From NCBI GenBank assembly GCA_047967505.1, contig CM106538.1: 64,000 nt of DNA, one strand, 5' to 3'. Source of the stretch: Dipteris shenzhenensis (lineage: Eukaryota). The notes beneath the pieces are model-generated. The model was given only the letters and a program-made list of their open reading frames with translations, did no database searches and had not been told where the DNA came from. Positions 15,201-46,558 of the stretch are shown in pieces; the stretch's first letter is position 1, and every line of letters starts with the position of its first letter. Made by a program: the position numbers and the translations under genes.

Positions 15201-15919
15201 AATGGTGCAGTTTCAATATCATGATAGTCATTCACAAGGTTGAAACTATAAAATCCATCATGCATAGCAGGGACTAGCTACTATGACATCCCTACTGACA
15301 TCATCAGTGCCCAATAGTGGGTGCAGCAGACCACAGTATAAATATATGCGCTCACACATACAAATCCACACACCTACACATACTTGAGCATTCATTTATA
15401 CAAACATGCCCAAGGCCACAAAATGATTGCTTTGTAAACATTTAGAATTCCAAACGTTTGGAATGGTCAAAGTTTGGATGTACCCATGCAAGTTTGCACT
15501 AATCACAAGACTAAAGAATCAAGCACAACTGGGAAGTGTGACTCTAGTATCACAAGGTAACTTTTTAGAATTGTCCTAGAATTATTACAAAATAAACAAG
15601 TAAATGCTGCAGCTGACAAACTTTTAGTATGCTCTATGCTTGATATGCATTTTGGCTTGAGCAACACGAAGAAGTTGATCTAGAATGTTCCGGTTTGAAA
15701 GCCTTGAAAACCGCACAATTGCACACCTGCTCTGGGTTTGCATGCAAAAGGACTAAACAAAAGGGATAACATTTTTCACCAAAAAAGCACTTGAAGATAC
15801 AAACATAGAAAGAATTCTTCAATCCAAAATAGGTTTACTTAGGCCACCTTCTTTTTTTGTCACTATCTCAGTAGCACTGAGAAAGAATTTGGTAACCATT
15901 ACTTGATTGTCTACAATCT

Positions 15920-16186
15920 TTGACACCAATTCAAGAAGGTAACCCATCATTAAACATAAGCACATACATACATAATCTAATACGAGTTGTTCCAGTCATC
16001 ACAGTGCAATACTATGTGCATAGATTCCAAGCTCTTAAAACATTGCTGAAAAGAGATAATAGGATCTTAGGAAAAACACAAGATTTATTTTTTGTAACAG
16101 AATTTCAAAATAGAGGAAGCCAACATGACCATGGGCTAGTATGTATTGAAGATGCACCATTGCAAGGTCAAGCAACATATGGATAA
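15920..16186 (+). pseudogene. Helitron Rep HUH endonuclease fragment
   Basis: LIRV(D)PV...YYVHRF...LGK.QDLFFVTEFQNRGSQHDHGLV.IEDAP matches the EFQxRGSxHxH motif. Twin at 45533-45790. Confidence 0.88.
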
Positions 16187-16374
16187 ATTGAAGAGTTTGC
16201 TAATAAATACATTACACAAAACATCGTATGAATCAATTTCATGATCCCTTTCTTTTAACAAAAATCTATATGCCAAACATTGAGTACTATTCAAACTTTA
16301 GAAAATTGATTGAGGAACAACGTATAATCATAAAAGATGTAATGCTTTAAAAATGAATTCACCCAAGCAATCCT

Positions 16375-16785
16375 TTGCACCTATTCTTAACTAGCAATGG
16401 TGGTACAGGCAAAACTTTCACATTAATGTTATTAGTGCAAGAACATCTAAGATACTATAACTATAAAGAAACAACAAACTTAGACCTACCACGTGTTCTC
16501 CTTCTAGCATATATAGGCAAGGCAACATTCAACATTGGAGGTTTAACTATCCATGCTACTCTTCACTTACCTTTAATGACCTCAGAGTACACAAGCTTGT
16601 TTGCAAAAAAATTGCAAGAATTGTCTCATCTTTACAAAGACCTTGAATTGATTGTGTTTGTTGAAGTCTCATTGATAGGGCCAAATACATTCTTAGCTGT
16701 TGACATGAGACTAAGAGAAATCAAACACAATCATCTTCAACCATTTGGTGGAATAAATGTTCTATTGTGTGGTGATTTGTGCTAA
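16375..16785 (+). pseudogene. PIF1-family helicase fragment
   Basis: Walker A GGTGKT, motif Ia AYIGKATFNIGGLTIH, degenerate Walker B (VEVSLIG), motif III PFGGINVLLCGDL. Twin at 45988-46398. Confidence 0.92.
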
Positions 16786-16952: not shown

Positions 16953-18111
16953 TAGATGAAGGGGATTTTGCATGCTAAAGATTAGTAAAGGGACTCTTCA
17001 TGAGAGTTCATTTTGTGGTGACATGACAATATTAAAAGCTATAAGACACCTCATGGATGACATAGTAATAGGGAATTTCAAGGGGGGAAGGTCATGGATG
17101 ACATCATGGGAGAAAAGTCACATTTAGAGAGGAGACATCCCAATTTCAAAATAAGAACATTGAGAAAAATAAAGTCTAAAGGTGGACACTTGGATCAACC
17201 ATTTTAAGAGAGCCACTTGGGGTGATGAAGAAAAGGGAAATTTTAGTGGAGGACTTGTCTAGACATGAGATTCCGGTCAAACAATTTTAATGGGGGTAAT
17301 CCTAAATAGCCTTCATTTTCGGGCTTTAAAGTGACCCCTTTTTCGTGAGTTTTGCTTCAATACCCCAATTCTTGATCCCCCCCCCTCTTGCCACCCCACC
17401 CTTTTTAACCTGGCTCACGACACTCAACACTCCCTTGCCCCTTAGTAATCCATATAAATGGATGCATTACTCAAGATTTGTGAGCTATTTTGGCAAGGGT
17501 CCGCCCGTACTCATTCATCCACCACTAGGCCAAGACGCTATGCCAAATTCTTGATATTTAAAAACCTCAATTCTTGAGAAGAGCACTTTTTTATACATTA
17601 GAACCTCATTTACTCCCTTATATGAATAAAATTTATTCTTTTTTGCACTGGAAAAAAAACCTCCGTTCTTTGTGAATTTATCCACTACTGTAGAAGTGCT
17701 CAGAACTTGAGAAGGGTCTTCTGGAGTTTGTTTTGAGTGTCGGTATTTGCTGTGTGTAGCACCCCACTCACCATGGAGAACTCTTTAGGTAGGCAGCATA
17801 GTGGAACCAAACTTCCTTTCTGCGTCTCGTTGAGCAACATGGCACACTGTAAATAGCAACCCCAAACCCACATGAGGGAATCCTATATTTGATGTTGCTA
17901 GATACTACCTCCGTGGGTCTAGTTTCTCTCCCTCCTTTCTTGTTAAGCAGGCAGCACAGTGGCCTGAAACGAGATTCTACCTGCCGAGCCTGACACCGTT
18001 TACTACTCTGTGCCCGGTTAGTGTGAGTGTATAAATAGATGATAAGTGAACCGTTCAAAGAGTCTTGTATAGTGTCTGAGTGAAGAGGTTGAAAGTCAAG
18101 AGTTCAATTCC

Positions 18112-21100
18112 ATGGCTTGCGGCATTGCCCAGCTCAAGGTTGGCGAGCCCCATGAAGCTCTCCAACTCCTCCATCTCCCCACGAATCCTCCGCCCCCAGC
18201 TCCTGGCTTCGTCCTCATCCGCATCACCATCTGCCCCATCCACCCCTACGACCTCATGGAGATCTCAAGGAGGAGGTACGTGGAACAACCACCAGGTTTT
18301 GTGATCCCCGGTTCAGAAGGTAAAGTTTGTAAACTGAAGAAGGTACTTTACGAGCTGAAACAGCCCCACGAGCGTGGTACCAGTGGATTGATGCCTACTT
18401 TTTGCAAAACGGGTTCAGGAGGAGCCCATCTGATGCAAATTTGTATATCTTCAGAGAAGGAGGCAGGTGTATGATCGTGGTCCTTTATGTGGACGACCTT
18501 GTCATAACAGGGAACCATGAAGAGAAGATCTCACAGACAAAGCATTTGCTAGGAAGAGAGTTTGAAATGACAGACCTCGGACTGATGCATTTCTGTTTGG
18601 GGATTGAAGTTTGGAAAGAGCCAAAATAGATCTTCATCTCATAGCTGAAGTATGTTGAAGAGATACTGAAGGCATTTGGCATGGCTGAGTGCAAGACAAT
18701 TGGCACCCCTATGGAGGTTGACGTGAAGCTCTCAAATGAGGATTCATCACCACTGGTAGACGAAGCGAAGTACAGAAGGCTTGTGGGTAGCTTGATTTAC
18801 TTGTGCAACACGCGGCCGAACATCAGCTTTGCGACTAGTGTACTATGCAGGTTTTCCAATAAGCCCTCGGAGAACCATTGGAGGGCAGGGATGCGAGTGC
18901 TAAAATACATCAAAGGCACACTTGATTATGGCATCACCTATACCAAGGGCAACATCTTGACCAGATTCTGTGACTCGGATTGGGCAGGAGATGTGGACAG
19001 CAGGAGATCAGTGACAGGTTACTGTTTCTCACTTGGATCTGGAGCTGTGTTATGGGTCAGTAAGAAGCAACCCACAGTTGCTCTTTCTTCTACCGAGGCT
19101 GAGTACAAATCAGCATGTTTTGCTTCTTGTGAGGTAGTGTGGTTGAGGAGGATTTTAGGGGACATGGGTGCAGTGCAGAACAAGCCTACACAGTTATCAT
19201 GTGACAATCAAAGTTGCATGGCAATTGCAAAGAACCCTGTGTTCCACACTCGCACAAAACACATTAAGATTCAATATCACTTTGTATGCGAGCTCATCAT
19301 GGATAGAGAGATCAACTTAGTGTACTGTCCGACTGTACTGTCCGACTACAGAGAATGCTGTGGACATCTTCATGAAGGCTCTTGGAAGAGGATTGCTGGA
19401 GAGGCATCTTCATTGACTTGGCATTGGGCCGAAAAAGTAAGTTCACTTGCGGCGGGTGGACATTGAGGGGGGGTGCTAGATATCAATGCTCCACTCTCAT
19501 GTAACTATGTGGGAACCACCTAACTCTACTTGTAAGCCCCCCATATGAGGAGAAGGCATTTGAGTAGCTCACTTATCCGGTAGGTCGTGGTTTGGACACT
19601 AGATGGGGGCCATGTGTGGCCTGATGGTTGGACAGCTTCAGATAGAGTTGGCACACTGCCAACTAGGCTACATGCAAGTGCGGGAAGGCATCCCATGATT
19701 GACCGTACTGAGGGTAGACGGAGCATTTCCTGGGGCAGCCCACTCTCGGGTTGTGGGGCTTGTTTGGAGCCCCAGATGATCCCGGATGGGCCGAACGGAG
19801 ACCGTAGGTTAGTTGCTCTATTTTGCGCCACGGTTCTATCATGTGGTCGGTGGCCTATTTCAGGATTGATCCCCAGTTGGCCGTTTTGGGTAGACTGGGT
19901 CGGTCAACCAATTGGGTCTGACTGACTACGACTGGTGGCTATATAAGAGCAAGCCCGTGAAGCCCATTATCATCACTTGCTACAGCAACCTTGATTCCTT
20001 AGCATCCAGCCTCCGTCCTCTACTATTTCCAGCATGCCATCGAAGCTTCTCTCACATGAGTGCACGGTTGGGAGGCAGTGCCATCTATTGTATCAGTTTT
20101 ATAGTAATCAAATTTTTGATTCTCCATACTATCTACTTTTCTCTCTTGCATATAGGATCCTATTACCTGTTGAGCACAGAGGTTGTATTGTTTTCTTACA
20201 AGTACAACTTCCCTGTACTCTTGGTATCTCCACTAAGGCCCATAATCCCCAGATGGTTTATGCATTAACACATGGCACTCACGGTGGACTGTGCAAACCC
20301 ACAACTTGCAACAATCCCTGAATCAGACCAACCAAGTGCATGTGTAAACAATCATTTTGGGAATTGCCTAGGAAGAGAACCTGAAATCATAGTGAGTGTT
20401 GACTTACATCCGGACTCTTCAATGTGGAGCTAAAAACAACTGAGAAATTTGAATCTATTAAACAACAAATATATTGTTTTTTTTTTCCCGCTACCCTTGG
20501 CAGAAGCTCTACTACTCATTGTTTGGATCAGTATTGCCTGGACCTGCTTCATCATTGTTTGGAGTAGTATTTCTCAAACTTGTTTCGTCTCTTGCATCAA
20601 CATCACGTATTATAATGTCCTGAATACTTGAAACCATGCCGCTATGGTAGTCTTTAGAGCTGCCATGATTTCTTAATTTCGAGCCCGTTAGTGCAGTTCT
20701 TTTCTTCTCATAATACTTTCCTGTATCTTCCACCACATTGAAGGAAACTTTCTTAATAGATAAATTTGATTTCAAAAAAGCTAATCCCCATTTAACAATG
20801 TTATGAAGTATCAAGGACCTCTAGATGTGACATATTATCCATTGCATTTTAAATGACCCCTTCACTAGTCAACTTAATACCACACAAAGAAGGGGTCATT
20901 CTGAGCATAGCCCTTAAATATGTAAACAAGGCCAACAAATCTTACACTTGAAATTCAAAAAAACAAAATATTGATGTGCACCCCAACCTAAATCCTGACC
21001 CTAAATCCTAAACCCTAACCCTAAACCTAAATTCCAAACCCAAAATCATAAACGTACCTCCAACTTGTTGCACATGCAACAAGTTTACGTTCTCTTGAGT

Positions 21101-21910
21101 GAGGACCAGATTGTTGCGGTTCCAGACAGCGTCAGTGATGAATCGGCTGCCCAATTTGCCCTCAACCCCTGGACGCTATATGGACTTCTCGATGAACTCG
21201 CCGTTCCGAAAGGAGAAAATGTTCTGCAGACGGCTGCAGCTTCAGTTCTTGGCAGGTGAGCATCCCTCCCTTCCCAACATTTGCACTAGTAATAAATTCC
21301 ATTGCTTAAGGTGGGAGTTTACTGTTGTTGTCAAGTTGGCTAATCTTGATAGTGGTCGAGGGAGTTCCCCTGTCAATGAACGAGAACTCCTCCTCCCTCC
21401 GGTTCCTCTTAAGAAGTGGCCCTAAAGTATGGGTCAATACTCCAACACTGGTAAAGGATAAGGCCTTGGGTATTGGAGGTTCTCAGATAAGGGAGGGATC
21501 CTTCACAAGAAAAGGGATGGCACGATACTGAGTATATTCGAATTTGCAGGCAGCTCATTCAGTTGGCGAAGCATTGGGGGATAAACACAATCAATGTCGT
21601 GCGGAACGACAGATGGAAGGAGGAGCTAAAAGCGCTTGGGGCAGACGAAGTGATTAACTCCGAGAGCGAAGGTTAGTTAATTACCGCAAGTATCTATAAT
21701 GTGCTGCCGAGTGGCTCCGTCCTTTTGCTGCCAAAAAAGATTTTCGCGTGGAGCATTCCAACCCCAAAGTTTAATGCGTACAAATAGCTTGTGAAACACA
21801 GCTTGATGTAGACTACGTATTTTGCAGACATAGTCCAAAGGGTGAAAGAAATTACAGGCGGCAAGCTGGCATATGGAGCTCTAGATGCTGTTGGGGGTTC
21901 TCTAACGAAG

Positions 21911-21952
<42 letters not shown>

Positions 21953-22416
21953 GTCTTCCATCGCCGAAACAAACTCAATGCTTGTGCGCGTTATCTCTTT
22001 AACCGCTATCCTGCTTCTCTAAAAACTCACCAGCACAGAACTGGCACTAGCATGTCGAGATTTTGATCGTAGCAGGCCACTCATTTTGTTAAAATGTTGT
22101 CGTCGCTGCAGGCCGTGGCGGCGAGTGTACGAGCTGGTGGCAGAGTGTTTGTATATGGATGCTTGTCCGGTTTTGATATCGCATTGAGCGTATTAGACAT
22201 GATCAGAGGAGTGACAGTGAGCTGGTGGGAAGTTACAAATTAGATTAACTCTAGTGCAAACAAACAAGCTCATGTATGCAAAGAAGTGATGAAGTAATGG
22301 AGGACAAGGTGATCACACCTCTTGCAGGGAAGAAATTTGCGTTGGAAGATTTTGATGCAGCAATTGAAGAGTCCGAGAAAGAGAAAAGGGGGGGCAAGGT
22401 GTTTCTCATTAGCTGA
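18112..22416 (+). pseudogene. Disrupted duplicate of the MDR/ETR-like oxidoreductase gene
   Basis: Exon 1 is cut at 18259. A 2.8-kb foreign segment replaces the rest of exon 1, intron 1 and the start of exon 2, and the gene resumes at ~21087. There is a TAC>TAG stop at 22241-22243 and a 1-nt deletion at ~22295 relative to copy B. Confidence 0.95.
18260..20270 (+). mobile_element. pol: Ty1/Copia RT-RNase H-PPT-3' LTR fragment (family 2) lying inside the pseudogene
   Basis: Motifs YVEQPPGF, LYVDDL, CDSDWAGD, ALSSTEAEY, RTKHIKIQYHF. PPT GAGGGGGGG precedes LTR 19474-20270 (TGCTA...TAACA, TATATAA near 19940). There is no 5' LTR and no TSD. Confidence 0.93.
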
Positions 22417-22974: not shown

Positions 22975-23520
22975 GAAGGAGAGGGAGAGGCGTAGGGGAA
23001 GGGAGGAAAGGGGGGGAAAGCTCGGGGAAGAGATGGGCAAGGGGAAGAGGAAGGGGGGGACACAAAGGGGCAAGTGAGGGGAAGGGAAGGAGGATACAGA
23101 TAGGAGGGGAAGGGGAAGAGAGAGGAACAATGATGGGGCAATAGGGAGGGCGAGGGAGAGACAGACATAAGAGAGGGGGAGGAAACATGAAAGAAGAGGG
23201 GGGGGGGGACAATGACATTGACGGAAGGGGCCGCTCAGTGGTGAAGGGGGAAGGAGACACTAAGCATGTGAGGGAGGGAGAGGGAGGCATTTAGCAAGGG
23301 GGCATAGAGCAACGGACAACAGCCAAGAGAGGGAGAGAGGCAAAGGGAACGAAATAGAGAGGTGCTCAGCAAGGGCGTCAGAGCGCTAGGGAAGGCAGAG
23401 GGATGGAGACGGGATGATAGGGAGAGGAGGGGAGAGATGGACATAGAGGGGGAGGGAACATGAAAGGGGGGGGGGGCAGATGACGCTAAGGGAAGGGACC
23501 GCTTAGCGAGGATAAGGGTA
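22975..23520. repeat. Purine-rich low-complexity tract with a degenerate internal repeat (period ~275 bp)
   Basis: The block GACATA.GAGGGGGAGG.AACATGAAAG...GGAAGGG.CCGCT.AG occurs at ~23,165-23,240 and ~23,440-23,510. Confidence 0.7.
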
Positions 23521-24259
23521 AGGACTCTGGTAACCCATCTTCTTCTGATGATAAAAAGAGAAAGAAGAAGATCAAGTGCTTCTATTGCAACAAGGTAGGG
23601 CACAAGCAGAATGAGTGCCTAAAGAAGATTGCAGATGAGAAGAACGGAGTAAAGAAAGAGTCTAGCAACAGTGCGCAGGCAGTACCAGTAGAGCTGTTCA
23701 TAGCAATTGAGGAGATTTACACAGAGGCAGTTCATGTACTTGCAGAAGAACCTTGGATAATTGACAGTGGTGCATCGCGCCACATGACCAGTTGGAAGGA
23801 TTGGTATACCTCTCTACAGCCGATATCAAGAGGAACTTGTTGTCCGTTTCTGCTATCACAGATCGGGACTTCAAAGTAAAATTCAATAAGAATGGTGCAC
23901 AGAAATCGGATCTTCAAGGGAAGGTCGTTGGTAAAGGTACACGGCGCAACAACATCTACGAACTCTTAGCTTTCAGTGCTCGAGCCGATGTGAAGAACAC
24001 TAAGCTGTGGCATGAGAGCTTGCATGATGGGCAAGCAGCATTGGCAGCCATTTCCTAAGGAGGCCAGCAGGGCAAAGGCTCCTCTAGAGCTTGTTCACAC
24101 GGACCTCTATGGAAAGATGGAGATGGAAGCTTTGGGTGGTTCCTACTACTTCATGATGCTGATCGACGACTACAGTAGAAGGATATGGTTATACTTCCTG
24201 AAGACTAAAGATGAGGCTTTTAGTAAGTTCAAAGAATGTAATGGTCAAGAAAGAAACTG
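23520..24259 (+). mobile_element. pol: Decayed Ty1/Copia gag zinc knuckle, protease and integrase N-half
   Basis: CFYCNKVGHKQNEC (~23,580), WIIDSGASRHMT (~23,755), RNLLSVS, LELVHTDLYG...IDDYSR. Several internal deletions. Ends abruptly at ~24,259. Confidence 0.9.
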
Positions 24260-26849
24260 AGCCACAGGCTTCGCATCAGGCTTCAGCTCTATCTTGTGCT
24301 CTATGGCAATCACATGGCGAAGGTGGCGGTAGCTAGTTGCGAAAAGGTCAGGGAGATCTTTGAACATTTCTAGGAATTCATCTTTCTCACTTGGAGTGAG
24401 GTCTGGGGAAAGCATAGATTTAAGCTGTTGAGAACTAGCTGTTGCCTTTTCTATAGGTGGCGAGGTTGGAGGCACCCCCATCATGTAAACTTCCTCATCT
24501 TAGAACTCCTCCCCCCGTCTGATCCTTCCATTGATTCGGACACCGAGGACGAGAGAGTATCACTGTCTTGCTCCTCTTCTTCTTCTCTTTCCATGGCACC
24601 GAGTTGCACCGGGATCTTCTCCTTAGAAGCACCAAAAGACATGTGTCCTGTCTTCCAATAGTTGACTGCATCACTCTTTCTCAACCATGGTCTCCCGAGT
24701 ATGGCTGGATAACTCCTCCCTATATCTTCAATGTCCACTACATAGAAATGGACGGTGGTGGTCAACCCATTGACAGTGATGGGCAAATCCTCAATGACTC
24801 CTAGGGTGGCGAGTCGTCGACCATCTGCTACCTTGATTCGAGTGGAGGAATGCCTTGTACATTTCAAATTCAATTTCTTCATGATTCGGGGCACCATGAT
24901 ATTACATGCAGCTCCCCATCAACACACACATTTTTGACATGGTAATTATCTATAATGACATCGATTGTATGTGGGTGCCGATCAATTTCTTCAGAGATAG
25001 AAGATACCTCTCTTACCTTTCCCTTTTTCTTGTTCCTCCTTGTTGGGAGCCCTTGCTGCAGCTCACGTCTCTCACCTTAGGGCTTAATGCTATTAGTTGA
25101 GGGAGCGTGATGCTCAAAGACCGATGAGCAAGGTCCTGAACGACCGAATAGTCCTCTTGCCCTGAGCCGATGGGAAAATCCGAGGGCGACCACTTACTCC
25201 TGCAAGATCTTTTAGTCTTCTCTGTTGGTGGGTCTGCCATCTCAGCATCTGAGGACTCTGAGAAGGACACCTTCTTCCTAGGGCAGCCCGGTCCATGGTT
25301 TAGAGAGGGGTCTGAGGTGGTACGACTTCTTTTTCCGAGGTCAAGGATCTCTACATCAGAATCCTCAATGCCAGATTCACTTAGAAGATTCACCCTTGGA
25401 ATATTGGGGAATTCCATGCGATAATGAGCCTTCTAGTGGCACTTGTAGCATACAACATTAGCACGGTCTCTTGGAGGGCGGTTGGCTTGATTTTTGATGC
25501 CCACCATCTCAAGCCGAAGATCATTCATAGCCTTGGCTAGGTCATTGACTCCGGGTTCTGTTGCAGGGGGGGCCTCTTTAGCTGGAGGGGCCGAGGGAGT
25601 AGAAAGGAGGGGGGCTCATGGGCGAGGCTGAGGAAATCTTCGAGGCGGAGGGTGAGAATATACACCTTATTGAGGGTAAGCATCTAAGGGAGGACCATAC
25701 ATTTGGAGGCAGTGGATACATCCCTAATGAGGGGTGGGGATATGCCCCTGAGTTAGACCCCCCAGGTTGTTGTTGCAGGAATTGAGGGGGTTGTGGAGGG
25801 ACAATCATCTTCTTTGAAGTGGGGTTAGACTGAACTTTATCAAACTTTTGAGCAATCTCATGTGCTTGCACCATAGTTTCTGGATTCTCCCATTTAAGCT
25901 TGAGGCGAAATTCATCACTTGCTCCTGCTACAAGGTAGCCCAGCACATGCTGAGTCATTCTAGCTCAAAATTTGGCATTGTCCTCCTGCGTGGCAATTAA
26001 ACGATCCAGGAGCACGATCGCTCGATCCACATATCAATGCGCCGTCTCCCCTTCTGACTGCTTCAAGTTTGCCACCTGCAGGTACACATTCTCTGGCTCC
26101 TCTTCTTTGCCGAAATACTCAATCATCACTGCTGTCAACCTTGGCCAGCTTGGCGAACGTCTTCGGCCTGCTTCTCATACCACACTTGAGCCAAACCCTC
26201 TAGAAATGTGGGAAGAACCAACAGCCATCTGTCTTCAGTAAGAAAGTTGAGAGAAACACAATGGTGCTTGAAGGCCACAAGATACTCATTTGGATTTTCT
26301 TCCACCCATCCACAAAACACGGGAAGGTCAGCCATGCTTGGAAGATGGAAAGAGAGAGGCAAGATGAGGCTTATCTATGGACAAACAATAGAAAGAGGAA
26401 GCTTGAACTAAAAATTAGGTAAAGATACCTCCACGAAGCACACATAGGCAGGGTAGGGTGTGACTAGTGTATTGTGAAATACTACACGGGAAGAATCTTC
26501 AGCATAGAATAGCACATAGACAATCTTAAAAGGACCAACCCTCATGATATCACATCCATCTTTACAAGCGAGGGTTAGAGACACGGCGCTGCATAAGGTT
26601 GTTCATCAAGGCAAACAAGAATGCCATGACAAACGTCAACAGTTGGAGAGCTTGCACATCACCTTCAGCTTCTTCTAGTTCTTGTAGTTGCCATGCTATA
26701 TCTTCAAAGGGTGTGTGGTCTAGCATCCTTCTTTTGAGCGATGTCCTTGAGGACCTTTCTGATGATCTTTCGAAGTCGGTGAGCTTGTATCAAGTATGCC
26801 CAACACTTAGTTTCATGATGACCACAACCTTTTCATTCCTTACAAATGA

Positions 26850-27332
26850 TCACCCTCCTTCGTGGCTTGCGGCTTTGTTGGAGTGGTGCTTACTCGCGTC
26901 ATGTGTGATTGAAGTACAAGCTTCACGTGCCAAGAAATCAGCAACTAGATTTCGAGCTCGAGGGATATGCTGAATTTTTACCTCTTCAAATTGGTTGCAA
27001 AGTTTCAATGCTTGTTGATGTCGTGGAACCAAGCCTTTGCTCCGCACCTTCCACCTTCCACTAACTTGTTCACGCACTAGTTGAGAATCTCCTTGCACTT
27101 CAATTTGCTTGACATGATGTTCTTGTGCCTTTTGTAGCCCAAAAATGAGCGCCGAGTACTCATCTTGATTGCAAGTACTTGTAGGTGCAGACTTGCTGTA
27201 ACAATACTCCTCACCACCCGGCGAAGTGAGCTTCACACCCATGCCAGCAGCCTTGGTCGAAGGTTTGGAAGCTCCATCGAATTGAAGGATCCAAGATGTC
27301 ATCACACCAAGACTAGAATTCGGGCATCCCAA
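26850..27332 (-). CDS. Archaeal-type RNase HI (RVT_3/aRH-like) ORF
   Basis: FDGAS...NQDEYSALIFGL...GDSQLV..QVSGRW...HIPRARNLVADFLA. All four acidic catalytic positions are present, as is the aRH-type PRxxN motif. Confidence 0.9.
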   Translation of the reverse strand: MGCPNSSLGVMTSWILQFDGASKPSTKAAGMGVKLTSPGGEEYCYSKSAPTSTCNQDEYSALIFGLQKAQEHHVKQIEVQGDSQLVREQVSGRWKVRSKGLVPRHQQALKLCNQFEEVKIQHIPRARNLVADFLAREACTSITHDASKHHSNKAASHEGG

Positions 27333-27525
27333 GTTTCTCGGTAGTCCAGGATAGGTAGAAGGAGAGGGTGGGGAGAATTCAACACTTAAGCCAAACGTTC
27401 AGCACGAAATAAACTTGCAATCCTTTGTTGATAGTTTATCTTTAGACAAAAAAGAATTACAACTTGAAGCTCGAAATGAGGCACAAAAGGTTGATTAGGT
27501 ACAAATGGATTCCTTGGTCGAAACA

Positions 27526-27933
27526 TTACCAACCATAGCCGAGGCCTAGAAACCTTTGTAGTGAGATTGAGAATAAACCATTCAAGACGAGCTTATCCAC
27601 AGGAATTAACAAGCAGATGTGCCAAATCTCCCCCCAAGCTTGGGGAGCATCCCACCCTTCGATGAAGGACACCATTTTAATTACCTCTAAAGTAGCAAGT
27701 AGTTCAATCACCGCACAATGAGTAGAATTAAAATCAAAGTTCTCCCAGCATATCAGTAGTTCTTCACCATGAATCATCCACGGTGTATCATTCCACCCAT
27801 CATCTCCTTGAACAATGCACTGGACAATCAGCCGTTGAAGGTCAACATGAAGATCAAGGAAGAGATCTCGTGCATTGGTAGCCGTAAGGTGCGGAGGACC
27901 AGGCACCAAATCCTTAAATGCGAGAAGTGACAT
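27526..27933 (-). CDS. Unknown 135-aa ORF in the Gypsy leader region
   Basis: Open ATG-started ORF of normal complexity, lying between the PBS and aRH on the element's sense strand. I recognise no motif in it. Confidence 0.35.
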   Translation of the reverse strand: MSLLAFKDLVPGPPHLTATNARDLFLDLHVDLQRLIVQCIVQGDDGWNDTPWMIHGEELLICWENFDFNSTHCAVIELLATLEVIKMVSFIEGWDAPQAWGEIWHICLLIPVDKLVLNGLFSISLQRFLGLGYGW

Positions 27934-28305
27934 AAATATCCACCCTCCTCATGTGGCGTGCGTCCGTGAAGTGGACTTGGAGAAGTTTCGAATTGGCGAT
28001 CTGGCAGGAGATGTGAATAGAGCACATGAAATGAAGTACTTTTGCTTTTTACAGCAAGAGTAAACTCCCCACGGCTAGAGAGTTACAGTTCTCGAGATTT
28101 CAGTATATAAACAAAAATCATTACATTTTCATTACTTCCAACTTGTTGGCCCAATGATAAGTCTCCCTTTTGCGAAGGGGAAGGTCTTGGGTTCAAATCC
28201 TACTCTTTAATAAAAAGAGAGGAGAGGAGAGGAGAAGGAGAAGAGAAAGAGAAAGAGAAGAGAGAGGGGGACGCGGGATCTGCTATTACAATTTTGCAGA
28301 AACTC

Positions 28306-28445
28306 AGAAAACTATTCGTGACCAGAAGACGTAGCAGCCTAGAAAACTATCGCACGGTTGAACGCAGTAGATGCGAGAAAACTGTCCGTGACTAGAAGAC
28401 GCAGGAGCCCAGAAAACTATCGTGCGGGTGAACACAGTAGACGTA
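28306..28445. repeat. Four 35-bp units arranged as two 70-bp dimers
   Basis: AGAAAACT starts at 28306, 28341, 28376 and 28411. Units 1/3 and 2/4 are most alike. Confidence 0.85.
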
Positions 28446-28728
28446 CAAATTGAATACGTGTGCAGGAACTATGAAGGAGTACAGATGATACAGTTCTGTA
28501 GATGCGACCGGTACGAGTAGAAGATTTGCCGGCCAGAATACACGTAGGAACTGTGAGCAAAAAGTAGGCAGACTGAAAGTGCAAAAATAGGGAGATTTTG
28601 CAGCCATAGAGATGGGGAGGCACACAGTTTAGGGACGCAAAAGAAGAGAACTGTGCACGGAAGAGGCCGCAGTGCCGCACCCAGTCGTAGGAGTAATAGA
28701 TTTCATACCACTAGCCATGGAGCTTTCG

Positions 28729-28746
28729 ATCCCAGCAGCCACACCA
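28729..28746 (-). promoter_or_regulatory. Primer-binding site complementary to the tRNA-His 3' end
   Basis: Plus-strand ATCCCAGCAGCCACACCA equals the last 18 nt (including CCA) of plant cytosolic tRNA-His(GUG) as I recall it. It sits 4 nt from the candidate LTR end. Confidence 0.75.
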
Positions 28747-28750
28747 TTTC

Positions 28751-30032
28751 TATTAGCCAGAAAAGAAATCAAGACTAGGGGCTAGAGGCTAAGCATGGCG
28801 ACGCTCGAGGGCCATAGAGGAAAGGAGATCGTGAGGGCGAAACGTTATCATGGGAGGGGAAAAGGAATTAGAAGGGGAGGGAATGAAGAGGGAGACTATG
28901 ATACAGGGGAAACGGAGAGGGGGAAGAGAAGCATGTACATGATAGGAGGAGGAATGTAAAGATGGAGACATCAAGGGAAGAGGACCATGCTTTATTTGAA
29001 AGAAAGGATGAGAGGGAAATATCAAAGTACTAGCTAGGTGGCTTTACAAGAATGAGCATGTCCATCAAGGAATAGCCCCCTCCTTTTATAGCCAAAAGAG
29101 GGGGTCTCTCCCAATTAATGCATCCTCCCACATGCATGGTGTGTGTGGAAAAGTCTCCCATGTGGGCTAGGCGGTTATGCACTCTCAATTGTGTGCGATA
29201 ATCCTTTGCCTCAATTTTCCACATAAATCAAGCCCCATATCTCAAGTCTATGATACTCCCTTGGTCTCTTCCCAACTTTATAATATGTTCAAACCTCTAG
29301 GAGGACAAGTGGAGGGTTGGCACAAGGAATCTTGCCACCTCATCCTACTTTCCCCATTATTTAACTTGCTCTCTTGGACCTTCTATACCTCCCCCACATG
29401 GGCCTATCCTATATGGAGGGAATAACCCAATATAATATCTATCTCCACCTATTTTATATTACTTCTCCCATGGACTTTGAGCCATATCTCACTAAATGCA
29501 GCCTAGGTGGAGGGGTGGCACATGGAGGAGCCATGCCACCTTACATTTTATAATATTACTACCATGGATTATGTACAACACACCTTATGGGTCCTCTTAC
29601 GTGGAAGGGTGGCACATGGTCATGCCCTACCACCTCAACCCTGGGACCTAGGCACACCATATTTTATTATACTATTGCCACACTCCTTAGACAAATTTAT
29701 CCATAACAATGGTCGGGTTTATTACAAGCCGCTTCATATGGCAATAAATGTAAAAAATAGCCTAGAAGGCTTTACAAGGTTTTTTATGACAATAAATGAG
29801 CTTGAATATGTGTACAAATGCAATAAAAATAACCAATAAAGATTTACAATGAAATAAAATGACTACTATAATCATCAAGCTCCAATATGCCCCATGACAT
29901 GTAATCTGTCTACTGATATTTGCTATCTGCTCATGCAATCTGCCCACTGATAAACTTCTTGGTAAATGGTAAAAGGTCTTATTTAATAGCATGTTATGAG
30001 TGTGAAACCGCATGTGAGCGAAGGGACTGACA
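28751..30032 (-). repeat. Candidate 5' LTR of the Gypsy element
   Basis: Adjacent to the PBS. Minus-strand TATAAAAGG at ~29,083-29,091. Termini TGTCAGTC...GGCTAATA form an imperfect inverted repeat with terminal CA apparently mutated to TA. There is no second LTR to confirm it. Confidence 0.5.
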
Positions 30033-30416
30033 ACAATTAGGAACTAGTTAGAAAAATTTGAGCATGGCTTCGATTGGCAACTTGGAGAATTGTCTCCCCT
30101 CTAAGGCAATCTAATCTATGCTAAACTATGCTAAACCAATCGTCGAAGTGAAGAAAAGCAATAAATAATATCTTTTTCTATGTTCATTTTAATGTGCTGG
30201 GGTTTAAGAGGCTTAAATATGCAAAAGAAGGGGTTTTGATGTAGAGGCTAAACCTGCATGTGAGAGAAATGAAGAACAAGTATCTAAGAAAAGTTAACAT
30301 TTTTCAATTTAAAAGATGAATATATATAAAAATATTATCTCACCTTCAAAACAAACCATAAATTCACTCTTTATAATTTTTTAAAAGTATAATATAAAAC
30401 ATGTAGATATATAAAA

Positions 30417-30432
30417 CTCTCTCTTTCCTCTG

Positions 30433-30477
<45 letters not shown>

Positions 30478-30823
30478 ACTCCTAATTCTCTGTGTAGCCA
30501 TAGTCAAGATACCTCATTCTCTCTCTTAATCTCTCTCTCTCTCTCTCTTACAACTCTTATGTCTTTCCCTCTCTGTCCTCATCCCACTCATTCTCTCTCT
30601 TAGTTTATCTCAAGTCTCTCTTTCTCTCCCTCCCATGTCCGCTAGGATTTATCATTCTCTCTCTTCATCTCTCTCTCTCCCCCCCTAGGATTTGTAATTA
30701 TTTCTCTCTCTCTCTCTCTCTCTCTCCACCTCTCTCTCTAGAGATTTATTATTCTCTCTCTTGATCTCTCTCTAGGATTTGTAATTCTCTCTCTCTCTCC
30801 TCTTCTCTCTCTTCATCTCTCTC

Positions 30824-30869
<46 letters not shown>

Positions 30870-31236
30870 CCTCTCTACCTCCCTCCCTCTATCCTCTTGG
30901 CCACTAGGATTTGTCATTCTTTCCCTCTCTATGTCTCTTTCACTCTCTCTAAATTCTCTCTCTTAATCTCTCCCTGCCTTCCTCCCTCCCTCCCTCCCTC
31001 TCTCCCTTTCTCTCTCTCCTCTGTCCCTCTTCTCACTTAATCTCTCTTTCTCTCCCCCCCTCTTCTCTCTCATTTCTCATTCTCTCTCTCTCTCTCTCCC
31101 TCCCTCCCTCCCTCCCTTGGCGGCCATGGCCATGAGAATTCTCATTCTCTCTCTCTCTACCTCCCTCTCTTGGCGGCCATGGCCACTAGAAGTTTCATTC
31201 TCTCTCTCCCTCCCTCTCTCCCTAAGTCTCCCTCCT

Positions 31237-31276
<40 letters not shown>

Positions 31277-32464
31277 CCTCTGGCAGCCACGGTCGTCAGA
31301 AGCTTCATTCCCTCTCTCTCCCTCTTTCTCTTTCTCTCTCCCTCCCTCTCTCTCCCTCTCTCTCTTTCTCTCTCCCTAAGTCTCCCTCCTCTCTTCTCTC
31401 TCTCTCTCTCTCCCTCTCCCTCCCTACTCTCTCCCTCCCTCTAGTAGCCACGGCTGCCAGGACACCCTCTTCTCTCTCTTAATCTCTCTCTCCCTCTCTC
31501 CGCTCTCTCTTTCTTTCCCTCCCTACTGTTCTCTCTCATTTAATGAGCCCCTCTTCTCTCTCTAATCTCTTGTCTCTCTCCCTCTCTCTCTTTCTCTCCC
31601 TCCCTACTCTTCTCTCTCATTTCTCATTCTCTCTCTCCCTTTGGCGGCCATGGCTGCCAAGAGCCCCTCTTCTCTATCATAATTTCTCTCTTTCCCTCTC
31701 TCCTCTCTGCCAGAAGTTTCATTCTCTTAAACTTCTCTCTCTCTCCCTCTCTCTCGCTCTCTCTCTTTCTCTCTCTCTCCCTCTCTCTCCCTCTCTCTCT
31801 TTCTCTCTCTCTCCCTTTCTCTCTTCCCTCAGTCTCCCTCCTCTCTTCTCTCTCATTTTTCTCTCTCTCTCTCTCTCTCTCTCCCTCTCCCTCCCTACTC
31901 TCTCCCTCCCTCTAGCAGCCACGGCAAACACGAGACCCTCTTCTCTCTCTTAATCTCTCTCTCCCTCTCTCCTCTCTCTCTTTCTTTCCCTCCCTACTAT
32001 TCTCTCTCATTTCAGGAGCCCCTCTTCTCTCTCTGAATCTCTCTCTCTCTCTCTCCTTCTCTCCTCTCTCTCTTTCTCTCCCTCCCTACTCCTCTCTCAT
32101 TTCTCATTCTCTCTCTCATTTCTGATTCTCTCTCTCCCTTTGGTGGCCACGGCCGCCAAGAGCCCCTCTTCTCTCTCTTAATTTCTCTCTTTCCCTCTCT
32201 CCTCTCTCTTTCTCTCCCTCCCTATTCTCTCTCATTTCTCAAATTTACAAACTCAAATTTGAATAAGAAACTAATTGAAATAGAGCTCAAAAACTCAAAT
32301 AAGAAACTAAATTAAAAAGGAATTGTAATGCCTACTAAAAAAAACCCCTCCTCTAGCTGCCATGGCCACCAAGAGTTTTCATTCTCTCTTAATCTCTCTC
32401 CCTCTCTTCCTTCTCTCTCTCTCTCCCTTCGCCCCTTTTCTCTCTCTTAATCTCTCTCCCTCTC

Positions 32465-32531
<67 letters not shown>

Positions 32532-33481
32532 CTTTCTGTCCCTCTTTTCTTTTCTCTCTTAATCTCCTGCTCTCTCTCCCTCTCTCTAGCTCTCTCTTTC
32601 TCTCTATGTCTCTTTTCAAATTTAGAACACAAATTTCAATAAGAAATTAATTGAAATAGAACTCAAAAACTTTAACAAGAAACTAATTGAAAAAGAATTG
32701 TAAGTAAAGAAAAAGAATTACAAGACGAATTGTAGAATTGCGAATAAAGAAAAAGAATCGCAAGTACCTGGAAAAAGTGAAAAAAGTAAGGCTCCGCTTA
32801 TCCTTTCTCTTCCGCTCTTGGTTGCTTCCATGAAATGAGGAGAGAATGAGAATGAATGAATGGAAAGAAGAGTATATATAAGAAAAACTAGCCCACTCCT
32901 CCCACTCACGAATAAATTTGAATTTTTAAAAAAGAGAGGGAAATTTGAATTCATTCTTCTAGATAAATTTGAACATTCTTCTTGAAACTTTCTTCTCGTA
33001 CGTCCCTCTTCATTCTTCTCGTAAGTCAAATCTTATTTGTCACTCTTGCTCGTGATCGTTCTAGTCTTAGTTATAAGAATTCGACCTCTCTCCCTCTACT
33101 CCTCTCCTCTTCTCTATGTAGTGGGCTCTCTCTCTCTCTAATGGAGTGCCCTCTCTATGGATGGAGCTCCCTCTCTTAGTCGCATATCTCTCGCTCTCTA
33201 GTCGCATACCTTCCCAACCTTCCTCTAGTCGTGTACCTTCCTCTCTCCCTCAAGTCTTCTCATCTCTCCTCTCTCTCTAGTCGCTTACCTTACCCTCTCC
33301 CTAAAGTCTTCTCATCTCTCTTCTCTCTCTACTAGTGTTTCCCTCTCCATCACGTCTTCTCACCCCTCTCCCTCCCTCACTCCTCTCCCTCCCTTACTCC
33401 TCTAACTCTCCTCTCATCCTTGGGGGCCACGGCCCCCAAGAGTCCTCTCTCTCTCTCTTCCTTCTCTCTCTCTTCTCCCCT

Positions 33482-33536
<55 letters not shown>

Positions 33537-34014
33537 CCCTCCCTCCCCTCACTCCTCTCTCTCTCTCCCCTCCCTTTTCCTCACTCCTCTCACCTTGGGG
33601 CCACGGCCGCTAGGACCCTCCTCTATCTCTCTCTCCCTCCCGTCCCTCTCTCACTCCTCTCACCCTCCTCTCTCTCTCTCTCCCTCCCCTCCCTTTTCCT
33701 CACTCCTCTCACCTTGGGGTTGCAGGCGCCAGGACCCCCTGTCTCTCTCTCTCCCTCCCTCCCTCTCCTCACTCCTCTCACCCTCCTCTCTCTCTCCCTC
33801 CCCTCCCTCTCACCCTGGGGGCCGCGGTTGCCAAGACCCCCCCTCTCTCTCTCTCTCCCCTCCCTCCCCTCCCTCTCACCTGGGGGCCGTGGTCGCCAAG
33901 ACCCCCCCCCTCTCTCTCTCTCTCTCTTTTGCTCCCTCCCCTCCCTCCTCTCTCTCTCTCCCTCCCTCCCCTCCCCTCCCTCTCACCCTGGGAGCCGCGG
34001 CTGCTAGGACCCCC

Positions 34015-34059
<45 letters not shown>

Positions 34060-34639
34060 CCCTCCCTCCTCTCTCTCTCTCCCTCGCCTCCCTCCCCTCC
34101 CTCTCACCCTGGGGGTCGCGGCCGCAAGGACCCCCCTCTCTCTCTTCTCTCTCTCTTGCTCTCTCTCTCCCTCCCCTCCCTCTTCTCTCTCTCTCCCTCC
34201 CCTCCCTCCCCTCTCTTTCTCCCCTCCCTCCCCTCCCTCTCACCTTGGTGGCCGTGGCTGCCAAGACCCTCCCTCTCTCTCTCTCTCTCGCTCCCTCCCC
34301 CTCCCTCCTCTCTCTCTACCTCCCCTCCCTCCCCTCCCTCTCACCCTGGCGGCTGGGGCTGCCAGGACACCCCTCTCTCTCTCTCTCTCTCTCCCTCCCC
34401 TCCCTCCTCTCTCTCTCTCCCTTCTCTCTCTCTCACCCTGGTGGCCGTGGCCGCCAGGACCCCCCTCTCACTCTCTCTCTCACTCTCTCTCTCCCTCCCC
34501 TCCCTCCTCTCTCTGTCACCTTGGCGGCCGTGGCTGCCAGGACCCCCCCTCTCTCTCTCTATTGTTCTCTCTCTCCCTCCCCTCCCTCCTCTCTCTCTCC
34601 CTCCCCTTCCTCTCACCCTAGGGGCTGCGGTTGCCAGGA

Positions 34640-34736
<97 letters not shown>

Positions 34737-35698
34737 CTCTCTCCCTGGGGGCCACGATTGCCACGACCCCCTCTCTCTCTCTGGTGCTCTCTCTCCACTC
34801 CTCCTGCTGCCCCCTCCCCCTACCCCTGCTCCCCCCTACCCCCGCCGCCCCCTACCCCGCCTCCCACCTACCCCTACCCCGCCGCCCCCTACCCTCGCTC
34901 CCTCCCCTCCCTCCTCTCTCTCTCTCCCTCCCCTCCCTCCCCTCCCTCTCGCCTCCCCCTACCCCCACTCCCTCCCCTCCCTCCTCTCTCTCTCTCTCTC
35001 TCCCTCCCCTCCCTCTCGCCTCCCCCTACCCCCGCTCCCTCCCCTCCCTCCTCTCTCTCTCTCCATCCCCTCCCTCCCCTCCCTCTCACCCTGGTGACTG
35101 CGGTCGCCAGGACCCCCTACCCCGCCTCCCCCCCTCCCGCCTCTCGCCTCCCCCTACCCTGCCTCCCCCCTCCCGCCTCCTGCCTCCCCCTACCCTGTCG
35201 CCCCTGCTCCCCCCCTGCCTCCCCCTACCCTTGCTCCCTACCCTGCCTCCCCTCCTCCCGCCTCCCCCTACCCCCGCTCCCTACCCCACCACCCCCTACC
35301 TTGCCTCCCTCCCCTCCCTACCCCCACTCCCCCCTCTCGCCTCCCCCTACCCCGCCACCCCCTACCCGCTCCTCCCTCCTGCCTCCCTACCCTGCCGCCC
35401 CCCCTCTCGCCTCCCCCTACCTCCTCTCCCTACCCCGCCTCCCCCCCTCCCTACCCCCCCTCCCCCCTCCCTACCCCTGCTCCCCCCTCCCTCTTACGCC
35501 ACTCTCTCCCTCCTCCCTCCCTCTTCCTCCCTCCCTCCCCTCTTTCGTCGCTCCTCCCTCCCTCCTTTCCTCCCTCTCTCTCCCCCCTCCACTTCCCTCT
35601 TCCTCCTGGAGGCCGCGGCCTCCAAGACTTCTCTTCTTCTCTCTAAACTTTCTCTCTCTCTCTAGTTCCTCTCTCTCTTTCTTTCTCTCTCTCTCTTC
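30417..35698. repeat. Two successive CT-rich composite repeat blocks (30,417-32,620 and 33,020-35,698)
   Basis: (CT)n tracts with a recurring GGC(G/A)GCCA(T/C)GGC(T/C)GCCA-type motif. 33,675-35,698 is the twin of 1-2096. Confidence 0.93.
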
Positions 35699-37147
35699 AA
35701 AATTTTAAAAAAAATCTAGATAAAGAATTAATCAAAAAAATTTACTAGTATGTGAAAAAAGTTTGTAAGTTTGCTCTTTCTTGCTTTCTTGCTCTTCCTT
35801 CCTTGCTTTCTTGCTTGTCCTTGCTTTCTTGCTTCAATGAATGAAATGAGGGGAGAATGAATGAAGAAGGAAGACTATATATAACAAAAACTAGGTTTTC
35901 CTCCTCATCTCCTATTGGCTTTCCATTCCTCCCCTCTCTCCTATTGGCTTTTCATTCCTCCCCTCTCCCATTGGCTCTTATTACTCCCCCTCTCCCATTG
36001 GACCCCCATCCCTCGTCCAAATCTTCCATTGGCCCTCCCCCCATCCATTTCTTCTTCCTCCCCCATTGCCACCACTCCCATCCCACATTTCCACCATGTC
36101 CCAAACTCCTCCAATTTCCCAAAATCCCATATTTCCCCATCTCACCCTCCTCTTTTTCATCCCCTATTAACTCCCCTCACTCATTTCACTCCCTTATTAT
36201 CCTACTCCCCTATTACCTCCCCCTCTCCCATTCCATTCCTCCCTCCCCACTCTCACTTCCACTTGCTTGCTTGATAGCTGAATCCTCTTATCCCCCTCTT
36301 CTCTTCACTTTTCTTGTTTATTTATTAAATTCTAACTTAATCTTCCATTCTTTTTATAGCCTAATCTCTTGCTACTATGACCATGTCCCATGGTATACTT
36401 ACTCCATTCTTCAAGTAAGCTACTCTACTTTGTCCTATTCATTGACCTTTCGTTGATTTTTCTTTTGCACTTGTGGACAAGCTAATCAATAAAGTATTCC
36501 ATTTTTTAATTTTGTCAAATCCATAGCTATTCCATCTCGTAGGTTCTCACCTTAACTCTTTTTTGCATAGCTAATTTCAGCACAAGCATGCAGAGTTGGG
36601 GGTGTCACATATGACATCACTAGGTTTAAAGTCTCTTTGTTTGCTCTCATCATGAGAGACTACACCATCTACTAAGGCACCCTAAACAAGTCCACAAATT
36701 TGATGCTAGGAGAATGAGAGGATGACAAGGACTCATGGGAAGGTAGCTAATGCACATAGCAATGAATGGTTTCTCGAGTGTGTTTGGTTTGAGAGCTAAA
36801 TCTCGAGGTATAACTGCTAATGGAATTGTTGCTCCTTACATTGCTAGTAGAATGGGGATTTCTCTCTTATGGCTAGTCACCCCATCTCCTACATCACAAT
36901 TGACCCCCCCCCCCTCCATCTCCTCATGCATAGGCACTATGTCTTAAGGGCTCATCTATGATTGGATGATATGAGAATTCGTAGAGGAGGAGCCTAAAGG
37001 ATTAAGTCCCGGTGTTATTTGTGCATGCAACAATTCATGTTTACGGTCTTTAATAAGGGCTATTTTCAAATATTGGCATCACAAATCTTTGTATAAGAGA
37101 GACTGAGTCATAGAGTAGCTTCAATTGAGCCTATAGCTTCAATTTAG

Positions 37148-38920
37148 CAAGGTGGTCAGATGTTTCTTCCTGGATTGCAAGTTATGCCTTGATGAAGGTT
37201 TTGTGAAGAAGAGGGCCTTTGATGATGTGGCACAAGGATTCACATGTTGAATTCCATACTGTGCTTACAAAGGGACTGTGCTTGGGTGGCACTATGCCAT
37301 GTGGCAGTCTTCTAACTAGACTGAGTTAACCCAAGTCTAAGAAAACTTAACCATGGCTAAATCTTATCCTGCCACGTGTCCAATGCTGACCTTGAGTGTG
37401 GCTAACCAAACATTTACTAACCATGGTTATGTTAGCCAGGTGGCCTTATCTACCACATGGCATCATCTTCCTCACATGGCTCTCAGAAGGCCACGCCTTT
37501 GAAGTTGTCGGGCTGGAGTGCCTCTAAAGGCCATGCGTGTTTGCAGCGGTTGGAGCGATTGTTGATGGAGTCTGGTAAGCCGTCCAGTGATGCGAACAGC
37601 CAAGAGCTTGCATTAGGCTACTGGCATCTATTATTTGTAGAGGCACAGAGTCATTCGTTTGTCGAAGCTGGCGTCTGGCTATTGGATATGGTGTGACTTG
37701 TGAGCTGCTCGCGGAGAGCGCTGTAAGTTTCTTTGAGGTTGGCTTGTGAAGGAGATGCCCATTGCTGCTGCAAGCCATCACTGAGGTACAACCGATGTCT
37801 CTTCAATAGTAATCTTGGCGGGCTAAAGGATGGAATCAAGGAACCTCGAGTAGCAAGCGGGTGACACCCAGTATTGCGGGTGACACCCAGTATTGCGGCT
37901 GATCAACTAGTATGATGAGGCCTGAAGCCGCCAGAGGGAAGCCGAAGGGAGTGCAGGAATATCCAATATTGGCACTGAAGGTTTGACAGTCTGAATCTGC
38001 AACTTGCCTTTCCGAGTAGTCTTGAGGGAAGGTGGTCAGTTTTTTTTGAGATCATGACAGCGTCCAGTTCCATTGGAGCATGCTACGATAGTTTGAGCTC
38101 TCTACCAAGGTATGATTAAGTATGAGTATGCTCATGACCCGTTGGCTGGAGCATCCCATGTAGAAAAGGATTCGTTTGGCTGGCTGCGTTGTAAAGGGCC
38201 AAGCTACAAGGAGCCTTCTGAAGATAGGAATCTGGACACCGCGTCTGATGGCTGCGTATAAGGCCGTTGTTGGAGAGGCAACTACTCCTGTAGTGGGAAG
38301 ATGTTGAAGGTCGCCATATGATGAAATTGTAGGTTTGTAGGCCAGCTCAGGAGACCTTGTTGGTGGAGGCCGGCTCTAGAGATTTTGTTGTCGAGGGGGG
38401 CTAAGCTGCCTTAGAGTTAATGATGAAGCCTTAGCTGCTTGCTAGAGCCTGTTGATAAGGCTCAAGTAGTCGTTTAGGCTGTAGAAGCTGGGTATGGGCC
38501 TTTGAACATTTGAAACTCTCTCAAAGAATAGAAGTTTCTCTCCCTCACAATAAAATCTCACAAGGCAAAGAAAGTATCTAGCTTTCTCACAAATTTAGTG
38601 AAGAGTTGCTCCCTATCTCTCACAATCTCTCAAAGAACTCTCTCACAAAATGAATGGACACAAAATTTCTCTCTCAAGAGATGGAAATTTGTTCTCACTC
38701 TAAAACTAAAACTAACCTAGGAGAAAAATATGAGCTCTTAAGGCATGCCTACAACTAATCTAGGAATGGGAGCAATCCTATTGAACTACTAATGAGCTAA
38801 ACTAGGAGAGCTAAACCTATGCTCTGATACCATGGCAAAACATGTGTGCCTCTGGATCTATGGAGCACTCCATAGGTGGATGGAACCTATGTGGAGACAT
38901 GATGAAGAGAGTGCTCATGA
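37148..38920 (-). mobile_element. Copy B remnant of the gag-deleted LTR element
   Basis: Matches 7490-9226. PBS at 38,821-38,832. The 3' LTR and PPT were removed by the deletion at ~37,148. Confidence 0.85.
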
Positions 38921-39190
38921 TGAAGAGAGAGCATTAGTGAAAAATAAGGAGAAACATGAGTAAAACCCATATCCATCCCTTGGACATTTGTTCTCATAGG
39001 GCTACTTTTGTTTGTCTACTTGTCTAATGTAAAGAATTTGTATCCATCATTTAAGCATGTGTTGTATCATGACAGATATGCAAATAAGGTGAATGAATTC
39101 ATCACGCCTGCTTGGAGGAAGCAATAAAGGTTGTCGAGAACAACCCATCAAAGGTGCAGACCATTCTCCAACCCTTTGTCAAAACAGCAC

Positions 39191-46398: not shown

Positions 46399-46476
46399 GC
46401 AAGTCCCACCAAGACTCATGGATCTTCATGTAGAATCATTCAAGGTCTACCCTAGCAACATCTTTTTGGAAAGAAA

Positions 46477-46558
<82 letters not shown>

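Follow-up and report, generated by a model that had tools for sequence, protein, structure and literature searches.

The minus strand of a 64,000-nucleotide (nt) stretch of DNA from contig CM106538.1 (hereafter referred to as the window) carries, between positions 24257 and 29708, a row of decayed retrotransposon genes preceded by a small open reading frame (ORF) that encodes an archaeal-type ribonuclease H (aRH). Three-frame translation of 30300–24200, together with the ORF list, gave the following order on this strand, from high to low coordinates: a block resembling a long terminal repeat (LTR), a leader, a frame called ORF X, the aRH ORF, a spacer, gag, a CCHC zinc-knuckle remnant, a protease and the start of pol. 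An earlier note, made from the sequence alone, had proposed the one-strand order LTR, repeats, ORF, aRH, gag, CCHC, protease, and this analysis bears it out. Taken together, 24257–29708 is most probably the 5′ portion of a Ty3/gypsy LTR retrotransposon that is no longer functional, with the layout described in the Tat lineage as 'structure #4' or 'pre-capsid'. The features are as follows.

29709–30032, no strand assigned: flanking DNA outside the element, from contigs of two public sequencing runs (X1 record 7 and X2 record 14).
28747–29708, minus: candidate 5′ LTR, starting with TGTTATGG at 29708; sequence reading, with the outer edge from the X1 and X2 contigs.
29084–29093, minus: TATA box CTATAAAAGG within the candidate LTR; direct sequence reading.
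28725–28746, minus: candidate primer-binding site (PBS), a TGG-initiated 22-mer with a T-arm-like GGGATCGAA; sequence reading.
28306–28441, no strand assigned: 70-nt tandem repeat in 1.9 copies, in the variable part of the leader.
28215–28267: purine-rich microsatellite in the leader.
27526–27948, minus: ORF X, 140 codons from stop to stop; ORF list.
26850–27302, minus: stand-alone aRH ORF, intact, 150 codons (26850–27398 from stop to stop, first ATG at 27302); Pfam and structure alignments.
About 26919–27281, minus: RVT_3 domain within the aRH ORF; Pfam.
26337–26849, minus: spacer of about 515 nt from the aRH stop to the gag ATG; sequence reading.
25578–26336, minus: gag (capsid part), with its ATG at 26336, one frame change and two in-frame stops; three-frame translation by eye.
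About 25409–25450, minus: CCHC zinc-knuckle remnant, C-x2-C-x4-H, with a stop inside and the last cysteine missing; by eye.
24481–24950, minus: aspartic protease with an ILGRPWL motif and a frame change in the region of the catalytic site; three-frame translation and ESM Atlas.
24257–24499, minus: first part of pol after the protease, about 240 nt, upstream of RVT_1, HKIELKPDAKPVAQ; by eye.
About 24257: truncation of the element against a Copia fragment on the opposite strand.
23490–24257, plus: Copia-type fragment with zf-CCHC (E 4.8e-4), Pol_BBD (E 3.9e-7) and the start of the integrase core (rve, E 2.2e-4); Pfam.

The archaeal-type RNase H and its place in the element

The aRH ORF matches the Pfam families RVT_3 (E 3.7e-24) and RNase_H (E 6e-8), and its first ATG falls where the domain begins. 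The predicted protein aligns end to end with the N-terminal domain of M. tuberculosis Rv2228c (PDB 3hst, E 5e-17), and over its full length with the RNase HI enzymes of Halobacterium (4e19, E 1e-16) and Sulfolobus tokodaii (2ehg, E 1e-9). In these alignments, the D, E, D and D residues and the arginine of the PR..N..AD motif are identical to those of all three solved structures. This arginine marks the archaeal subtype of RNase H (Ustyantsev et al. 2015, PMC4408406). Judged by sequence, the ORF is confirmed as archaeal-type with a complete set of predicted catalytic residues, in agreement with the earlier note, which had described an open frame that retained them. Whereas the three solved proteins are host enzymes, the window aRH is carried by a repeated mobile element. 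A search of the ESM Atlas with the aRH protein returned RVT_3 again and nothing beyond it.

In a database of protein clusters at 90% identity, the closest relatives of the aRH, P0151 (25 members) and P0152 (8 members), are 154-amino-acid (aa) proteins that are 81% identical to it and begin at the same methionine as the window ATG. The N terminus of a decayed relative, P0064, reads through the DNA directly upstream of the aRH, indicating that the upstream flank is shared as well. A protein library clustered at 50% identity yielded 11907 aRH matches at E <= 1e-3, and the best 150 representatives were scanned in Pfam. Seven of them are gypsy pol fragments with RVT_3 (P0026, P0050, P0072, P0076, P0095, P0108 and P0120); the remainder are host proteins combining SAP or Cauli_VI with one to three RVT_3 domains, enzyme fusions and stand-alone forms, and none of the 150 contains Exo_endo_phos or zf-RVT. 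No aRH-related locus was confirmed among the pattern matches in JGI metagenome contigs (75) or in viral contigs (30).

Contigs of four public runs (X1–X4) were matched to the stretch at a likeness of at least 80%, with 395 fitting contigs in X1, 72 in X2, 291 in X3 and 45 in X4, covering 28, 29, 30 and 24 of 30 bins, respectively; no public run contains more than 0.20 of the sampled words of the stretch. Contig details were listed for 32 of the 817 placed pieces. Among these, X2 record 11 (1027 nt, 45 differences) spans 26418–27442 and holds the whole aRH ORF, extending beyond it by 140 nt on the upstream side and by 432 nt on the downstream side. The tiling is carried toward gag, down to 26370, by X1 record 4 (26571–26861) and X3 record 20 (26370–26583), and these three contigs provide the cover of the spacer; a loose end in X3 at 26351 continues in homologous spacer sequence that differs slightly in length. 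On the other side of the aRH, a join of 28311 to 28678 in an X3 contig ties the LTR-proximal leader to its inner part. The run X4, which is only guessed to be RNA, has contigs on the aRH region and on the LTR with nothing firm shown by them, and the listed runs with matching contigs include no RNA run. The earlier note had treated the aRH as part of the element and not as a separate nested fragment. Sister contigs that share the stretch, and relatives that are stand-alone ORFs with the same start, bear this out, and from these comparisons we regard the aRH as confirmed to belong to the element, with one caveat at the junction with gag that is given below.

We placed the domain in a FastTree phylogeny of 207 aRH domain rows and 144 columns. 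The sole supported set that holds the window aRH unites it with P0151 and P0152 (support 99); the seven gypsy-pol rows require four changes on the tree, and deep placement lacks support. This domain does not discriminate between one capture of aRH and several: our tree lacks the resolution, and the authors of PMC10508981 say as much of their own aRH phylogeny. The independent capture suggested in the earlier note is not supported.

Boundaries, coding regions and state of the copy

The outer boundary of the element is drawn from contigs X1 record 7 and X2 record 14, which match 29709–29835 and 29868–30032 with few differences and extend past the stretch beyond 30032. Left of 29709, both contigs diverge into 95 unmatched letters, which places the insertion edge at 29708/29709. 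The inner end of the candidate LTR lies either at about 28843, at CCATGATAAC, a near inverse of the start, or at about 28747, just before the TGG-initiated stretch. This stretch is the sole PBS-like sequence noticed and is kept as a candidate; ARAGORN found no tRNA gene in the window with which it could be compared, and no Rfam family was found there. The TATA box may act as part of a promoter. This copy, which lacks the 3′ half of the element, has a single candidate LTR, as posited in the earlier note; the contigs support its outer edge, and it contains the TATA box. In a self-comparison of the window, no part of 23024–30300 recurs elsewhere. There is therefore no second LTR between the parts of the element, as the earlier note had stated, and no 3′ LTR.

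The leader varies in length within the family, as indicated by the X3 contig that connects 28311 straight to 28678 and omits 366 nt, including the 70-nt tandem repeat; X1 contigs give no cover over 28310–28695. ORF X, which lies between the leader repeats and the aRH, matches no Pfam family at E <= 0.05. By our estimate, chance alone would produce about 0.7 ORFs of its length in the six frames of 5.8 kb, and an equally long antisense ORF (26548–26973) overlaps the aRH. The DNA of ORF X is common to the sister copies, as expected of a conserved leader. As a gene, ORF X is unsupported. Nothing points to splicing of ORF X to the aRH: no listed contig joint has canonical intron ends on either strand.

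Downstream of the aRH, a reading of the spacer found no poly(A) run. No single ORF piece of gag, protease or pol matches a Pfam family at E <= 0.05. A read-through of gag from 25578 to 26174, with X at three stops, matches PNMA (E 0.0025) and Retrotrans_gag (E 0.064), which are capsid families of gypsy origin. In an ESM Atlas feature search with the protease ORF, 24 unnamed clusters came first, and all matches to named families were retroviral aspartyl proteases (Peptidase_A2B, RVP_2, Asp_protease_2 and gag-asp_proteas) with scores of 0.91–0.92; we take these feature matches as a lead to the identity of the protein. Other searches with the protease ORF returned no related sequence: none of 460 candidates among longer proteins reached E <= 1e-5, PDB sequences gave chance-level cellulase matches (E 0.2), and no related locus was confirmed among 28 pattern matches in viral contigs. 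The capsid-family and Atlas matches, weak but concordant, suggest that gag and protease are of the gypsy kind. The start of pol contains an H-x-I-x-L...AKPV-x-Q stretch, which we take to be typical of gypsy pol just before reverse transcriptase (RT).

Pol breaks off at about 24257, where the gypsy pol end on the minus strand and the Copia integrase end on the plus strand abut head to head within about 15 nt (24245–24260), both elements being incomplete. Of 157 window ORFs of at least 80 codons, 105 passed a low-complexity filter and 93 of these were scanned in Pfam; RVT_1, a native RNase H (RH) and a gypsy integrase are absent among the 93. The RT start described in the earlier note thus stands as the stretch upstream of RVT_1, seen by eye, and the RVT_1 domain itself is missing. 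Between the gag ATG and the cut (2080 nt), three-frame translation revealed five frame changes and three in-frame stops, that is, eight breaks. Length differences of sister contigs at five places in gag-pol coincide with the frame changes of the window, indicating that these breaks are private to this copy. With RT, RH, integrase and the 3′ LTR missing and about eight breaks in gag-pol, the copy is dead and incapable of transposition.

Against this decay, the earlier note had set the open aRH frame, and the contrast is real but lies within chance: at a rate of eight breaks per 2080 nt, the 453-nt aRH ORF would be expected to carry 1.7, and the probability of none is 0.18. We considered selection on this copy as the reason for the open frame and rejected it on this ground. 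The wholeness of the aRH ORF in this copy may be chance, and the most that the copy could yield, should the LTR promoter be active, is a free RNase H.

Published layouts and competing readings

Biryukov & Ustyantsev 2023 (PMC10508981) screened 92 green-plant genomes and reported that the aRH-bearing LTR elements all belong to the monophyletic Tat lineage. In their scheme, Tat 'structure #4' denotes elements whose aRH occupies a separate ORF ahead of gag; it was found in four mosses and in Selaginella tamariscina; the supplement appears to assign it, by our interpretation of its columns, to Pleurozium schreberi, Calohypnum plumiforme, Ceratodon purpureus, Syntrichia caninervis and S. tamariscina. 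Prokopeva et al. 2026 (PMC13468544) name the layout 'pre-capsid' and cite Wang et al. 2021 (New Phytol.) along with the 2023 paper for its discovery. We found no further description of the aRH-before-gag layout in the literature beyond these papers. The earlier note had held the arrangement to be possibly undescribed; that inference is not supported, since the layout is already catalogued under both names, a finding that the note itself had listed as one that would refute it.

The window element resembles structure #4 (Tat B in mosses, Tat C in S. tamariscina) in that its aRH has an ORF of its own in the 5′ region, ahead of gag, encoded on the same strand and within the LTR-bounded unit. It differs in that membership of Tat B or Tat C cannot be shown for a copy whose RT domain is missing. 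According to the supplement of PMC10508981, the moss genomes are listed with only 5–12 aRH-bearing elements, whereas hundreds of diverged contigs are related to the window element, with the reservation that contig counts are not copy numbers. Structure #3, or 'post-integrase', of conifers, Cycas and Ginkgo likewise has a separate aRH ORF outside pol and raises the same question of action in trans, but its aRH ORF lies on the 3′ side of the element instead of 5′ of gag. The classical Tat/Ogre/Retand elements of angiosperms (structure #1, dual RH) share the archaeal type of the domain; in these elements it forms part of pol, joined immediately behind the degraded native RH, whereas the window aRH is separate. 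Some Tat/Ogre/Retand elements have extra ORFs upstream of gag, of the PMD type (PMC4408406), whereas ORF X has no match to PMD or any other Pfam family.

These layouts suggest how the aRH might serve the element. The order is an LTR, a long leader, a small independent aRH ORF, a spacer and gag-protease-pol. According to PMC10508981, the native RH is degraded in all aRH-carrying Tat structures identified, and in the published structures the RH beside RT lacks its catalytic core. The aRH may supply the RNase H activity for reverse transcription. Being separate from pol in this layout, it would have to be made separately and recruited in trans. Either the leader of the genomic RNA or a dedicated transcript would serve as its messenger, and the protein would then have to find its way to the particle, a point flagged by the authors as an open question.

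Several observations weigh against reading the locus as a Tat element of the pre-capsid type. The gag and protease matches lie below curated thresholds (for PNMA and Retrotrans_gag, the curated Pfam cut-offs), and the inner LTR edge and the PBS remain candidates that are not established. Among the 32 of 817 pieces listed, none crosses the gag ATG at 26336, and the link between aRH and gag runs through overlapping short contigs. Tat is defined by RT phylogeny, and the window copy is without an RT domain. In the aRH tree, the window clade falls into no larger supported group, and its nearest rows are not the seven gypsy-pol aRH domains.

The last two points favour a reading in which the family does carry its aRH upstream of gag but belongs outside Tat, to Athila, to a chromovirus or to an unnamed Ty3/gypsy lineage that captured the domain independently. 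With RT missing in the copy, Tat membership rests on no RT tree, and the window aRH is not grouped with the gypsy-pol domains; its best identities to those (40–42%) do not exceed its identities to cellular forms, whether stand-alone or fused (45–47%). Set against this, the aRH-bearing LTR elements reported from the 92 green-plant genomes are all Tat (PMC10508981), and the published aRH phylogeny is as unresolved as ours, so that the tree weighs little either way. We consider a non-Tat origin unlikely, while granting it more weight than the readings that follow.

A further possibility is that the aRH is a nested fragment without a working part in the family, derived either from the 3′ end of a plant L1 long interspersed nuclear element (LINE) or from a host RNase H gene of which a piece was captured, and lodged in the leader of this element or of a recent ancestor. 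Plant L1 elements do end in an RNase H of the archaeal subtype with the conserved arginine (PMC4408406), and host proteins with SAP and two or three RVT_3 domains head the match list by summed score. In L1, however, the RNase H is C-terminal in ORF2, behind RT, and is followed by poly(A), and no such setting exists here: the ORFs on the upstream side match no Pfam family and show no trace of RT, zf-RVT or an endonuclease, poly(A) is missing downstream, and none of the 150 best matches is LINE-like. Moreover, the stretch and its flanks occur in contigs of four runs with at least three labelled organisms, and the relatives retain a 154-aa ORF with its own start. This reading is very unlikely and already largely refuted.

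Least probable of all, to the point of being nearly negligible, is a chance juxtaposition in which a host RNase H gene or pseudogene stands beside unrelated transposon debris and the 'element' is a patchwork: the surroundings are indeed a graveyard of transposable elements, containing remains of Copia and Helitron as well as a rearranged segmental duplication, and the element is truncated against a Copia fragment, but a single-copy host gene would not match hundreds of diverged contigs (395 in X1 and 291 in X3), and the same-strand order agrees with the published layout.

Surrounding window, host and significance

The window contains a large segmental duplication in which 1–23024 corresponds to 33675–52949 at 89–98% identity, with the last two blocks swapped in the second copy (18256–21086 matches 50112–52949, and 21080–23024 matches 48137–50076). 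The 10.6 kb between the two copies holds the Tat and Copia fragments and a CT-rich block. A 3.9-kb segment of the first copy, 3549–7490, is absent from the second; besides a Copia-type gag ORF (5986–6642, Retrotran_gag_2, E 7e-31), it contains several repeats, some direct and some inverted, of 90–96% identity, among which no clean LTR pair was resolved. Both duplication copies carry Helitron remnants (15896–16782 and 45494–45754; Helitron_like_N, E 6e-8 and 8e-10; PIF1 helicase, E 7e-19) and fragments of a Copia RT (RVT_2; 18073–18626 and 50112–50390; E 4.6e-18 and 7.9e-24). Low-complexity arrays that are CT-rich and strand-skewed, with a GC skew down to -0.75, occupy 1–2000, 30400–35700 and 53850–54500 and account for many spurious ORFs rich in proline, serine or leucine on both strands. 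Exons of a host gene resembling zinc-type alcohol dehydrogenases or quinone oxidoreductases (ADH_N, ADH_zinc_N_2) lie at 47687–49464 and at 21812–22063. The nearest proteins to one of these exons are two 332-aa sequences of only 59–62% identity, which suggests a poorly sampled host lineage.

The arrangement of aRH before gag is real, borne by the element and already published, and the window adds another family with this rare layout. Because the layout is in print, the arrangement as such adds nothing new; the value of the locus lies in the further family and in the presence of its sister copies in several public data sets. The question that attaches to the layout, raised by those who described it, concerns the role in reverse transcription of an RNase H encoded in a separate ORF, and how such an enzyme could have let the native RH decay.

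We put forward, as a tentative possibility that we would not favour over its opposite, that the host lies outside the five species with reported structure #4 and that the family is perhaps high-copy there. Pointing in this direction are the identity of only about 60% between the host gene and its nearest protein, the size of the DNA runs of the relatives, about 1.6–2.7 gigabases of contigs, and the label 'algae metagenome' on one of the runs with matching contigs. If this were so, the known range of the pre-capsid layout would be widened; it is the host taxon that decides this. Were the host a streptophyte alga, the acquisition of aRH would be pushed back before land plants, against the published conclusion. 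The family would also provide abundant material for testing the part that an RNase H encoded on its own plays in reverse transcription.

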